Shown here: positions 17,832-63,385 of the stretch, piece by piece
How the letters are laid out: the number at the start of each line of letters is the position of its first letter
Numbering within the stretch: position 1 is the first letter of the stretch
From: Pirellulales bacterium
GTDB lineage: Bacteria > Planctomycetota > Planctomycetia > Pirellulales > JAICIG01
Reading direction: 5' to 3'
DNA: 64,000 nt
Assembly: GCA_040901675.1 (NCBI GenBank)
Contig: JBBDYJ010000014.1
Span: forward strand, 39,305 to 103,304
Program-made: the position numbers and the translations under genes
Notes under the pieces: generated by a model
The model's input: only the letters and a program-made list of their open reading frames with translations
Databases searched by the model: none
What the model was told of the DNA's origin: nothing

Positions 17832-18003
17832 CGGTTTCGTCCCCCCCACGTCCTGCCATAGTCGCCGTCCATGGACGGCAGGACATGCAGCAGCCGCTTA
17901 TTCATCCAGGTTCCAGGATCGGCCGAGAAATAAGCTCTTCACATCGCAACTGGGGCACGCTTATCGCTTTGCCCCAGCCACCCGGGTGGGTCGACACGGG
18001 CGC

Positions 18004-18888
18004 TCAAAAGTGGCTGGTGTAGCCGCGCTGGGCGGCGGCCAGGTCGAGGTGCAGCGTGGCGACGTCGGCCACCAGCAACTGCAAGGGGGACAGGGCGGAC
18101 AACGTCGAGACCATCTTGACGTAACCGCGGCAGCCATCGCAGACCGATGAACGGTATCGCGTCTCCTCGCCTTCGCAGTGCAGAAAACCCAACTCCTCGT
18201 GGTCGCGGTTGCCGCAGAATGGGCACCATAGCCGCGCCGCCTCCCAACCGGCTGAACACAGCCCGCAGCGCAGGAATCGCGTTTGCTCCAGCCCGCGAAA
18301 CTCGCCTAACAGCGGCCAACTGCCGCACGTCGGACAGTAACCGCGCTCCCAGGTAACGCCGGCCCGCAAGGGGCCGAGCGAGGCTTCGAGCGCGGTAAAT
18401 AGCGGGAACAAGGTAAACCGCAAAAGCGTGGTCGCCAGGCCGGGATCGAGGCGGAGCTCTTCGGCCCGCTCGCGGACCACTTCCGGCCGGCCCGCAAGCA
18501 CCGCATCGACCATCTCGGCGGGATCGAGCCGGCCGCCGCGCATGGCGTCGGCCAGCGCCGCGGCGGCGCCGTCGGCCTCCTGGCTCTCCAGCGCCCCGCA
18601 TGCCCGACGCCAGCGCTGACGAAATTCCTTCGCATCGATGGCAAGCTGCTCGCCGCGCAACAGCGGGATACCTTCTATCAGCTTGGCCCGGGCGCGCTGG
18701 GGTTCCAGAGGCACGGCCGGCGCGGAACTACAGGGCACCAGGTCGGGGAGCAATGCGCGCAGCCATCGCAGCAGCGAGTCTAAATCAGGCCGGGCGGCCG
18801 CGAGACGGTCGAGCTCCGCCCGCGCGTCCTCGACAGCCGGCGAAGCCTGGGGGCCGCCCAACCATTTATGCAGGAAGGTTTCAACCAC
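18004..18888 (-). CDS. fdhE: Formate dehydrogenase accessory protein FdhE
   Basis: Four CxxC pairs (CPTCG..CGLC..CPFCG..CDGC); last gene of the fdh operon; GTG start. Confidence 0.8.
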   Translation of the reverse strand: MVETFLHKWLGGPQASPAVEDARAELDRLAAARPDLDSLLRWLRALLPDLVPCSSAPAVPLEPQRARAKLIEGIPLLRGEQLAIDAKEFRQRWRRACGALESQEADGAAAALADAMRGGRLDPAEMVDAVLAGRPEVVRERAEELRLDPGLATTLLRFTLFPLFTALEASLGPLRAGVTWERGYCPTCGSWPLLGEFRGLEQTRFLRCGLCSAGWEAARLWCPFCGNRDHEELGFLHCEGEETRYRSSVCDGCRGYVKMVSTLSALSPLQLLVADVATLHLDLAAAQRGYTSHF

Positions 18889-19243
18889 CCCGTCTCTCCG
18901 CTAGAGGGCCTCGCACCGCCTCGCCGACGAGATGCGCCAGCCACTCGGGAGTCGCCAGGGCGGCCCGCCACTCTTCGACCAGGGCCAGCGCAATCGCCCG
19001 CGTCGGCCCGGTGGGCGCCCCCAGCTCTTCGACGATCGCCGAGAGCGACGCCGCGAGGTCGTCCGGATCGGGATCGAGCGCGGCCAGGGCGCCGAGCACG
19101 CGCCGCTTGAGCGCCAGGCCGGCGCGGTCGGCTTGCTGGTCGCGAGCGCGCTGGCGGCCAGTCAGCTCGCCGGACGAGAGCAAGAGCACGGCGAAGTCGC
19201 GGGGGCGCAGCGAAGGAGGCACGGACTCGTGGGCGTCGCTCAT
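18881..19243 (-). CDS. Hypothetical small protein inside the fdh operon
   Basis: ATG overlaps the nrfD stop (ATGA) and its stop overlaps the fdhE start; 120 aa, Ala/Leu-rich and helical. Confidence 0.45.
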   Translation of the reverse strand: MSDAHESVPPSLRPRDFAVLLLSSGELTGRQRARDQQADRAGLALKRRVLGALAALDPDPDDLAASLSAIVEELGAPTGPTRAIALALVEEWRAALATPEWLAHLVGEAVRGPLAERRGG

Positions 19244-20319
19244 AGCTGCATCGCCGGCTCTCTTGGGAGCTTGGAACGCGGCTCGACGGCTTCGACGCGG
19301 TTGCCGATGTCCGCCCCGCGCTGGCCAACCTGCCGGCCATCTTCCGGACCGAAGCTGAACCGGGCCGACGGGCCCCGCCGCAGCAACTCGCTCGGCGTCG
19401 TGACGGCGCCGTAACGGAGCAGCAGGCCGCCCAGCAGCACGCAGGCGGCCGCGGCGGGGATGCCCCAGCGGCGCCGATGGCCGATCCGGGCGTGCACCAG
19501 CAGCGGCACGAGCACGGCCACGACCAGGCTGCCGAAGATGAAGATATTGCCGCTGACCGTCTGCAACACGGGGCCGAGGTTGTCGCCCAACGAGGCAATG
19601 AAGGCGGCAAGCACGATCAACTCTAGGCCCATGGCCAGCGGCTCGGCCCCTTCGAGCCGGGCCCGTGCCTGGGGTGTGCCGATGTTTTTCCACCGCGCGG
19701 TCAGCACCAGCGTCGCCAGACTGGTCGAGGCCGCCGACGCCAGGAACAGCGGAGCCAGCCAGACGGTGTCGCTCCACATCGGCTGGTTGGTCGCGGCCAG
19801 CAGCGCCCCGGTGTAACTGGCGACGAAGAAGCCGGCGGCGCAGCCGAGGGTCTGCAGAATCCGGTGCGGCCAGCGCGCCTGCAGCCACGGGCCCGGCCAA
19901 CGCTGGGGCCGGACGGCCGCCAGAAAGGAAGCCAGCGAGCAGGCGCCGAACAGCGTCAGGCCCCAGGAGCCGGCCGACATCGGCGACCAGTACTTGAAGG
20001 CGGGGGCCTGGACCGCCAGCCGCCAGCCCGCGGCGCTGAACGGGAAGCCTTGGTCGAAGGCCGCCTTGGTGACTTCGGACTTGAGCAGCATGTGCCAGAA
20101 TCGTTCGGGCCGGTACAAATCGACGATCAGCAGCAGGCCGCAAACTACGATCAGCGGAAAGGCGATCCAGTATGCAATCCGGGCCAGTGGCCGGTCCTCC
20201 ACGGAGCCAAACCACTCGATGAGGATGGCGATGAAGTACGAGCCCGCGGCGATGCCGCCCAGGAAGAAGTAGGCGATGACCCAGCCACCCCAGTGGGGAT
20301 CGGCCACAAACAAGTTCAT
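19240..20319 (-). CDS. NrfD/PsrC-family integral membrane subunit of the formate dehydrogenase complex
   Basis: About 8 TM helices; starts MNLFVADPHWGGW; ATGA overlap with the fdhB stop. Confidence 0.8.
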   Translation of the reverse strand: MNLFVADPHWGGWVIAYFFLGGIAAGSYFIAILIEWFGSVEDRPLARIAYWIAFPLIVVCGLLLIVDLYRPERFWHMLLKSEVTKAAFDQGFPFSAAGWRLAVQAPAFKYWSPMSAGSWGLTLFGACSLASFLAAVRPQRWPGPWLQARWPHRILQTLGCAAGFFVASYTGALLAATNQPMWSDTVWLAPLFLASAASTSLATLVLTARWKNIGTPQARARLEGAEPLAMGLELIVLAAFIASLGDNLGPVLQTVSGNIFIFGSLVVAVLVPLLVHARIGHRRRWGIPAAAACVLLGGLLLRYGAVTTPSELLRRGPSARFSFGPEDGRQVGQRGADIGNRVEAVEPRSKLPREPAMQL

Positions 20320-62216: not shown

Positions 62217-62987
62217 ATGACGGCTTGTTACGCCTTGCGGTGCGGCCTGTTGCTGGCGTGGCTCGCTGTCCCGGCGATTGCCCTGGCCGACGATTTCCGG
62301 GTGCACAACAAGATCTTCCTGGCCGGCGGCAAGCAGCCGGTGGCCGAGACGATCACAGTCTTTCGGGCCGGCCGAGTCTACGACTTTCAGCCGAAAACGC
62401 TGGAAACGACCATTTTCGACCCGTCGCAGGACCTGTTCGTGCTGTTGGACGCCGGCCGCCGGACAAAATGCGAAGTGCCGACCGCGCGGATCGCCGACTA
62501 CGTTGCACGCTTGAAGATCGAAGCCCGCATGCACGGCGAGCCGCTGCTCGCGTTCCTGGCCGATCCACGCTTCGACGAGTCGACCGACGCCGACTCCGGC
62601 GCACTGAAGCTTTCGAGCGATTGGCTGAGCTACCGCGTGGAAACCGAGAAGGCGGCCACTTCTCAATCGGCCCTGCAGTACGGCGAGTTCGCCGACTGGT
62701 CGGCTCAACTGAACTGCCTGGCGAACCCCTCCAGCCTGCCGCCTTTTGCCAGGCTGGCGCTCAACGATGCCCTGCGCCGGCGGCAGGCGCTCCCGCTGCG
62801 ATTGGAGCTCAGCCTCTCCAAGCGCGCTGGCGGCCGGCCCGCACTGACGCGCCGCAGCCAGCATACCGTGCAATGGGGGCTGTCGCAGGAAGATCATCGC
62901 CGCATGGACGAGGCGGCCGATCAACTGGCCACCTTCACAACCGTAGGCCTCGACCAGTATCTGCGCCGATCGCCGGAAATGCCCTAG
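62217..62987 (+). CDS. Hypothetical secreted protein
   Basis: Signal peptide MTACYALRCGLLLAWLAVPAIALA; balanced composition. Confidence 0.5.
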   Translation: MTACYALRCGLLLAWLAVPAIALADDFRVHNKIFLAGGKQPVAETITVFRAGRVYDFQPKTLETTIFDPSQDLFVLLDAGRRTKCEVPTARIADYVARLKIEARMHGEPLLAFLADPRFDESTDADSGALKLSSDWLSYRVETEKAATSQSALQYGEFADWSAQLNCLANPSSLPPFARLALNDALRRRQALPLRLELSLSKRAGGRPALTRRSQHTVQWGLSQEDHRRMDEAADQLATFTTVGLDQYLRRSPEMP

Positions 62988-63040
62988 AGCGAGCGCTTTG
63001 GGCCAGGTGCACGGGCCACAGCGACCCGTGTACGAGGCCA

Positions 63041-63241
63041 TCAAGCCTGGACATCGGCCGGCGGTTGCTGGGGCGGTGAAGGCGCGGTGGGCGCGGAGCC
63101 GAGTTCGTCGCGCAGCACGACGATATGCGGCGGCGCCTCGATGCCCAATCGCACCTTGTCGCCCGACAGGCGGACCACGGTGACCACGATCGAATCGCCC
63201 AGCCTGATTCGTTCGTTTTCCTTGCGGGAGAGTACCAACAT
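63041..63241 (-). CDS. csrA: Carbon storage regulator CsrA
   Basis: MLVLSRKENERIRLGDSIVVTVVRLSGDKVRLGIEAPPHIVVLRDEL matches the CsrA consensus; GGAGGTGA RBS. Confidence 0.85.
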   Translation of the reverse strand: MLVLSRKENERIRLGDSIVVTVVRLSGDKVRLGIEAPPHIVVLRDELGSAPTAPSPPQQPPADVQA

Positions 63242-63385
63242 CAGCTCACCTCCGTGCGGAATGATAGTGTATAAATGTATACAAACGAAGGTCGCCGTAG
63301 TCAACAGGTCAATGGCGAGCAACGGGGGGACAACTTTGCCCCAGCCACCCGGCGGCACTCCCACTTTCACCCAACTGGCGTCCGC

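Follow-up and report, generated by a model that had tools for sequence, protein, structure and literature searches.

The hairpin repeat and its copies in the window

The stretch of DNA analysed here, henceforth referred to as the window, comprises 64,000 nucleotides of a Pirellulales bacterium (GenBank assembly GCA_040901675.1, contig JBBDYJ010000014.1, positions 39,305 to 103,304 of the forward strand), and the element under study is a short hairpin repeat dispersed through it. The exact pattern CTGGGGCA-N12-TGCCCCAG was matched three times in the window (17950-17977, 57864-57891 and 57933-57960), compared to a mean of 0.05 matches in dinucleotide-preserving shuffles; three or more matches were seen in 0 of 100 shuffles. 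A profile built from the four full window copies returned those copies with E-values of 1e-13 to 1e-11, together with two damaged copies, all on the plus strand, and no other match in the window rose above noise. These searches confirmed that the dispersed hairpin is real. All six sites listed in an earlier note on this DNA were recovered by the profile, and their coordinates need only be adjusted by a few bases.

The repeat unit is approximately 38 nt long and consists of a perfect 8-bp GC stem (CTGGGGCA/TGCCCCAG) closing a loop of 11-12 nt. The earlier description gave an 8-bp stem and a 12-nt loop; the stem stands as described, and the loop is of either length, being 11 nt in the copy at 33539. 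On the plus strand, conservation reaches one to two bases 5′ of the stem and includes the 3′ tail (C/G)CACCC(G/A)G. The earlier consensus was a plus-strand reading; on the minus strand the canonical unit is 5′-(CC)GGGTG(G/C)-CTGGGGCA-AAGCG(N2-3)AGCG-TGCCCCAG-T-3′, and the plus-strand CCACCC of the first copy, for example, is GGGTGG. Forty exact copies, taken from the window and from a metagenome-assembled genome (MAG) of a sister species described below, were aligned with the tail first. GGGTG directly 5′ of the stem was 97-100% conserved and was followed by G in 75% and C in 25% of these copies; the tag is therefore GTGG in three quarters of them and GTGC in the rest. Variation in the loop was limited to the central two to three bases, and a T followed the stem in 75% of the alignment. 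Stem bases were invariant in all copies found. By RNA folding, the hairpin was the dominant structure in both orientations and was present in every fold.

Each copy in the window reads tag first on the minus strand. Copy 1, a full copy at 17948-17987 (E 1e-13; hairpin at 17950-17977, tag CCACCC at 17978-17983), lies 20 nt 3′ of the stop codon of fdhE (18004-18888, minus strand). Copy 2, also full (33539-33576, E 1e-11), has the 11-nt loop and the tag GCACCC and is situated in a minus-strand tRNA array, 14 nt after tRNA-Ser (33588-33675) and 11 nt before tRNA-Trp (33457-33527), in agreement with its earlier placement. The full copies 3 (57862-57900, loop CGCTAATCGCTT, tag CCACCC) and 4 (57931-57969, tag GCACCC) form a direct tandem with a 69-nt period, which constitutes a direct-repeat family, D1, of 58 nt at 83% identity; copy 3 is located in a 754-nt spacer downstream of a DUF1559 gene (58239-59354, minus strand). 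Copy 5 (56260-56283, E 5e-4) is truncated, with the loop and the 3′ arm remaining in the minus-strand reading, and occupies the spacer between a DUF3467 gene (56385-56744, minus strand) and nifS (55041-56195, minus strand). The last site, CTTTGCCCCAGCCACCCG at 63334-63352 (E 7e-4), is a remnant that retains only the tag and, in the plus-strand reading, the 3′ arm. It falls inside the over-extended 5′ end of the csrA open reading frame (ORF) at 63041-63370 (minus strand). As the CsrA domain is not reached until residue 44, translation probably starts further downstream, which would place the remnant in the 5′ untranslated region (UTR).

A 37-nt module, GGATCGGCCGAGAAATAAGCTCTTCACATCGCAA on the plus strand, occupies 17911-17947 beside copy 1. 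Copies with the loop TATC, termed "subfamily A", carry this module at their head. It is kept beside the repeat at six sister-MAG loci (L013, L017, L029, L031, L011 and L025) and not beyond. A related module forms the outer inverted repeats around doublets of the hairpin in five metagenome loci (L062, L065, L105, L137 and L154). A module of the form GGCCGA(A/T)nATAACTTC also stands alone behind fdhE in the sister MAG (L164, 6905-6925), where its orientation is reversed.

Distribution and genomic context of the repeat

A scan of one genome per species with the exact pattern returned at least 35 loci with at least 37 copies, and all those listed belong to a single Pirellulales MAG, LejiaB_66_9. 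Its status as a sister species was established by comparison of locus L024 with window positions 54229-56844 (91-97% identity). After the window's own species, the nearest NifS was only 70% identical, and the genus is therefore rarely sampled. Metagenomes were searched with a looser pattern requiring the stem and the tail with any loop of 10-13 nt. At least 120 contigs carried the repeat, and the 80 that were listed represent approximately 40 assembly prefixes and a GC content of 0.53-0.70. Only one of 2.9 million contigs in a viral collection contained it, and a phage origin was rejected on this basis. The repeat was not found in 52 kb from three relatives at 66-70% NifS identity, save for a degenerate look-alike in L038 (11173-11208). 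The repeat is a chromosomal, multi-lineage family. The possibility raised earlier, that copies are confined to the window by chance, does not hold given its abundance elsewhere.

Genes around the copies were called with a crude gene finder, which was based on codon usage and trained with the long ORFs of the sequences themselves. Of the 53 copies present in the window and the sister MAG, nearly all were intergenic by these calls. Four of 55 profile matches overlap a crude gene call; two of these are weak (E ~0.4), and the other two sit at the called 5′ end. A repetitive extragenic palindrome (REP) is defined, in two surveys (PMC3733652, PMC6006769), as a GC-rich palindrome with an unpaired GT[AG]G-type foot immediately on its 5′ side. 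The repeat is accordingly of REP form, being a short palindrome with an unpaired foot of this type, present in high copy and intergenic.

Of 135 metagenome units, 80 are paired with an inverted copy approximately 10-11 nt away, which is the architecture of REPINs, the paired REPs described by Bertels and Rainey (PMC3116915, PMC3337134). The left arm of these metagenome doublets has its own conserved variant, GGGTGGCTGG(C/T)GGCTGAGCGCAGCGAAGCCCCAG. In the window and in the sister-MAG loci, the copies occur singly or in direct tandem, and the REPIN arrangement was not found among them.

Two further observations concern the surroundings of the copies. Octamer runs of GAAGGCAG / CCTTCTGCC are present upstream of nifS in the window (56196-56217 and 56867-56888), and octamers of this type adjoin many sister-MAG copies (e.g. 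L012, L013, L025, L030 and L032); they seem to constitute another simple repeat family of these intergenic regions. A Logan contig of the same genome (L036, SRR27977660) ends inside copy 1 (5837-5864), 47 nt after fdhE, and the repeat thus breaks short-read assemblies.

A transposase gene bracketed by the repeat in relatives

Neighbouring genes were surveyed by clustering every ORF located up to 1 kb from a copy. The translated repeat itself made up the largest clusters, and no true neighbour family was present in more than five loci; the genes flanking the repeat are therefore diverse. REP-associated tyrosine transposases (RAYTs) are domesticated transposases, and the only recurrent neighbour in the clustering was a RAYT. 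A regulon, or a cis-acting site of one gene family, was rejected on this basis.

In three metagenome contigs (L049, L085 and L161), an ORF of approximately 190 aa lies between two inverted copies of the repeat with their tags pointing outward, which is the classic REPtron arrangement. Both flanking copies carry GGGTGG in L049 and L161. The encoded proteins contain the HuH motif PEHVHLIV and the catalytic tyrosine motif YIHLNPVRR..WEWSS. The L049 protein matched the NCBIfam model NF047646, 'REP-associated tyrosine transposase', over its full length (E 7.5e-23, 81 bits, cutoff 80), and its top match in the PDB was the E. coli TnpA_REP structure 4ER8, in which both motifs were aligned at a marginal E-value of 0.025. 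At E<=1e-20 the family comprises 4,403 members, and every named one is from Planctomycetota. The REP-like reading in the earlier note is upheld by the GT[AG]G-type tag and GC palindrome, by the extragenic, high-copy distribution and by the RAYT flanked by inverted copies in relatives.

The palindromes were found to change with the transposase. RAYTs at 81% (L161) and 60% (L085) identity to that of L049 are flanked by the same REP, and RAYTs at 62-65% identity (Maioricimonas rarisocia CP036275, L162 and L163) are flanked by different, longer palindromes that retain the GGGTGG tag and the stem base CTGGGG...CCCCAG. Such co-divergence of transposase and palindrome is as expected of REP/RAYT systems and settles the identity of the element, which we take, with a probability of approximately 85%, to be the REP of a RAYT system widespread in Planctomycetota.

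Two other transposase genes were considered as the cognate enzyme and rejected. The gene at 46780-47982 in the window (minus strand) encodes a HuH-Y1 protein of 400 aa with the motifs NHLH...YVDLNPIRAGL, which scored 26 bits on the NCBIfam RAYT model and had no Pfam match. It is preceded by two truncated tandem duplicates of its 5′ part (47991-48332 and 48308-48766), and the whole unit (46600-48800) is bounded by the 10-bp terminal inverted repeat (TIR) AGACACCCAT / ATGGGTGTCT instead of by the hairpin repeat. From its sequence, the unit looks like a TIR-associated tyrosine transposase (TIRYT-like) unit that is unrelated to the CTGGGGCA repeat. The other candidate, the RAYT of metagenome contig L076, is flanked by unrelated GTAG REPs. 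This different RAYT (7136-7920, 189 aa, motifs DHLH...YIHYNP) lies between GTAGGTCAGGGCTTGCCCTGAC REPINs, and a CTGGGGCA REP is found 5 kb from it, so that two REP/RAYT systems occur together on that contig.

Comparison of orthologous sites

Copy 5 of the window, which lies between the DUF3467 gene and nifS, has an intact orthologue in the sister MAG (L024). All 33 surviving bases of copy 5 are identical between the two, and the flanks have diverged. The tag and first arm of the window copy have been overwritten by an inverted pair of GTAG REPs, GGTAGCCGAATTCGCCAGAATTCG ... CTGAACTCTGGCGAGTTCAGCTACC, at 56283-56365; a second REP family has therefore inserted or replaced sequence here since the two species split. 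The site of copy 1 next to fdhE gave the opposite picture, as neither the sister MAG (L164) nor a third relative (L165) has a copy there. The FdhE of L165 falls in the same 90% cluster as that of the window. L165 shares TGTCGACCC(A/G)CCGG with the window, and the divergence starts exactly at GTGG. Copy 5 is retained in the sister MAG and copy 1 is missing from both relatives, and the repeat therefore undergoes vertical retention as well as gain or loss on the timescale of speciation.

Orientation relative to genes

Of 42 cases scored in the window and the sister MAG, 31 have the tagged side of the repeat towards a gene's 3′ end (p=0.003); the median distance to the stop codon is 41 nt. Between co-directional genes, 18 copies are in the sense and 2 in the antisense orientation (P=2e-4 against an expectation of 0.5, and P=0.012 against an assumed replication-linked expectation of 0.65); GC skew across the window was uninformative about the replication strand. 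Every window copy that lies beside a confident gene or tRNA, including the copy in the tRNA array, is in the sense orientation of the upstream gene. The 9 nt 3′ of the hairpin are enriched in T, with a frequency of 0.75 at position +1 and of 0.15-0.45 (mostly ~0.4) at positions +2 to +9, compared to 0.17 genome-wide. These stop-proximal singlets on the sense strand hint at a role in the 3′ UTR, which their positions make plausible and do not prove.

Alternative explanations

The orientation bias, the distance to the stop codon and the T enrichment would also be expected if the hairpin were primarily an RNA element selected by the host, acting behind genes as a sequence-defined terminator or as a stabiliser of mRNA 3′ ends, with its REP ancestry incidental or domesticated in this genus. 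The persistence of the shared copy 5, unchanged between species 91% identical while its flanks diverged, is favourable to this explanation, as is a relative (L039) in which the orthologous DUF3467-nifS spacer contains a canonical stem-plus-TTTTT terminator in the place taken by the REP in the window and in L024. Canonical terminators were moreover not enriched in the region from 46000 to 64000 (18 found, 13.5 expected). The repeat resembles an intrinsic terminator in having a GC stem shortly past the stop codon, a sense orientation and a T-enriched stretch after the hairpin, but differs from one in that its sequence, and not its shape alone, is conserved. It was rejected as a canonical intrinsic terminator (a stem with a 3-8-nt loop and at least 5 T in 8), given that its 11-12-nt loop is too long and it has no true U-tract; the terminator scan of 46000-64000 accordingly misses its copies. 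Among the metagenome loci, where gene calling is poorer, the bias is weak in singlets (21/33, not significant) and absent in doublets. Six copies in the window genome and the sister MAG lie between divergent genes, one lies within the tRNA array, and strand-specific insertion into single-stranded DNA could itself contribute to the orientation bias. On balance, a primarily host-selected RNA element is considered possible but doubtful. The same holds for a variant that grants the REP origin, whereby the REP may tentatively be regarded as co-opted in this genus as a sequence-defined 3′-end element. It would then serve as a U-tract-poor terminator or exonuclease block ~40 nt past stop codons, replacing the canonical terminators of relatives and persisting without an inverted partner and possibly without a RAYT.

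The remaining explanations were found to be much weaker. The earlier note had offered a MITE-like reading, under which the repeat would be a deletion derivative of an insertion sequence (IS) moved by a classical transposase through TIRs, i.e. a miniature inverted-repeat transposable element (MITE) or palindrome-associated transposable element (PATE). The repeat is indeed short, high-copy and palindromic, and some metagenome copies are found inside imperfect palindromes of approximately 150 nt with outer inverted repeats such as GGCCGATGAATAACTTC...GAAGTTATTCATCGGCC. However, the inner hairpin is constant while the outer repeats differ between lineages, TIRs are not found beyond the hairpin, no consistent target-site duplications were detected at the copy flanks, and the only gene repeatedly bracketed is a RAYT instead of a DDE or IS200-type transposase; this origin is very improbable. 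A structured non-coding RNA or riboregulatory motif, which the earlier note had also proposed, or a genuine protein-coding repeat in the ORF at 57483-58145, is hardly credible. The hairpin is stable, and both copies within that ORF translate in one frame (LGHA.RFAP). Against an RNA motif, the stem bases are invariant and the neighbouring genes unrelated; a gathering-threshold Rfam scan of the whole window gave no relevant match, and permissive scans of two copy regions returned only chance-level matches (E >=1). The coding explanation was rejected, as the 1-nt difference in loop length among copies would change the reading frame, and the ORF has a total codon-usage score of -0.2 (called genes: median of +0.29 per codon) and no Pfam match. 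The two LGHA.RFAP stretches are the translated repeat, and the doubt first cast on this ORF was well placed. Copy 1 lies within another ORF (17647-18150) that is non-coding as well (score -34).

Resemblance to a sigma-54 or sigma-70 promoter was dismissed by inspection of the sequence, on the grounds that the GGCAC-TTGC spacing is 9-10 nt and not 5, and that no -10-like hexamer is suitably placed in the subfamily-A extension. Hairpins associated with class 3 TnpA_Y1 were also considered. According to Quentin et al. 2018 (PMC6006769), class 3 enzymes of Planctomycetes and Acidobacteria have atypical flanking hairpins with a CnGA foot. The system described here is similar in that planctomycete HuH-Y1 genes are flanked by high-copy secondary structures. 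It was nonetheless excluded from class 3, because its foot is GGGTGG and not CnGA and its protein has the class-2 (RAYT) signature YIHLNP, W.WSS and not the Y....Q / YV..EQ of class 3.

Other features of the window

The 19 tRNA genes of the array that contains copy 2 are arranged in two minus-strand blocks (29879-34484), and a separate tRNA-Leu is encoded on the plus strand at 14281-14364. A cobalamin riboswitch (61682-61866, minus strand, 86 bits) is located directly upstream of an ORF of 688 aa (59578-61644, minus strand). A match to group II intron domains D1-D4 (45397-45511, minus strand, 77 bits) lies in or beside the minus-strand ORF at 43897-45663. A tandem repeat of ACCAATGACCAATG with a 14-nt period and approximately 3 copies is present at 56941-56985.

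Discussion

The assignment of the repeat to a REP/RAYT system of Planctomycetota is based on its anatomy and genomic distribution, on the REPtrons of relatives and on the co-divergence of palindrome and transposase. Several observations weigh against it. At 11-12 nt, the loop is long by REP standards, and a quarter of the copies carry GTGC in place of GT[AG]G. The copies came from exact-match scans, so the sample is biased towards perfect stems. The L049 protein exceeded the NCBIfam cutoff by only 1 bit and remained below threshold on Pfam Y1_Tnp (20.6 versus 23 bits). A search of the 64-kb window and of the 35 sister-MAG loci (206 kb) yielded no homologue of the cognate RAYT, and the sole HuH-Y1 gene in the window is the longer type with other repeats at its bounds. 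Finally, the inverted doublet, which is regarded as the mobile unit (REPIN) in Pseudomonas, is not the arrangement seen in the genus of the window.

Compared to the REP/RAYT systems of E. coli and Pseudomonas, the repeat shares a GC palindrome with a GT[AG]G-type foot, a HuH-Y1 gene of approximately 190 aa between inverted copies, short-spacer inverted doublets in most of the metagenome copies and, as we infer, hundreds of extragenic copies per genome. The protein also reaches the NCBIfam RAYT model and aligns to the E. coli enzyme at the HuH and Y motifs. It differs in its GTGG/GTGC foot after an invariant GG, in its perfect 8-bp stem with an unusually long loop, in the strongly sense-oriented singlets and direct tandems after stop codons in the window's genus, in the conservation of its core sequence over contigs of 53-70% GC, and in the marginal similarity of its protein to 4ER8.

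Di Nocera et al. 2013 (PMC3733652) report the REP families GTAG-20 and GTAG-21 in Rhodopirellula baltica, together with many tyrosine-transposase genes with flanking repeats. Like the present repeat, these families belong to the order Pirellulales and consist of tagged palindromes of broadly the same type. Neither CTGGGGCA nor TGCCCCAG occurs in the supplementary text of that survey, whose consensus sequences are given in figures; no identity with a described family was found, but it is possible. The core sequence was likewise not found in the searchable literature or in the supplements of two REP surveys. Classic GTAG REPs of other sequence coexist with the repeat in the window (56283-56365) and in L076 (7139-7161). 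The repeat is thus apparently an undescribed REP family, common in Planctomycetes, and would represent an ordinary kind of element in a new lineage.

By analogy with E. coli and Pseudomonas, the repeat would be active as single-stranded DNA, in which the hairpin and its foot would be recognised by a single-copy HuH-Y1 enzyme. Binding and cleavage of single-stranded REPs is known for TnpA_REP of E. coli (PMC3479197). Cutting and rejoining beside the hairpin by such an enzyme would allow the non-autonomous repeats to spread and be maintained, with the enzyme's own gene residing between two inverted REPs. Catalysis on this repeat by the RAYT is accordingly predicted by homology, and the repeat may be mobile in the window genome at present.

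REPs of E. coli have been reported to attenuate read-through or to protect mRNA 3′ ends. Copies in the window's genus are probably transcribed into 3′ UTRs, given their location in the sense strand ~40 nt past stop codons. A stable hairpin in such a position would be expected to block 3′-to-5′ exonucleases and/or attenuate read-through, as for the REPs of E. coli, and the repeat may act at the RNA level. mRNA turnover is mentioned in the abstract of PMC3479197.

REP/RAYT systems have been studied almost entirely in Proteobacteria, and the present results indicate that they are abundant and well conserved in Planctomycetota. For annotation, the repeat generates spurious ORFs, such as that at 57483-58145, which pipelines may call as genes. 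It also provides a marker of genome dynamics in a poorly sampled genus. The feature most worthy of attention is the occurrence of strongly sense-oriented singlets close to stop codons, and this orientation offers a testable case for REPs as 3′-end RNA elements outside E. coli.

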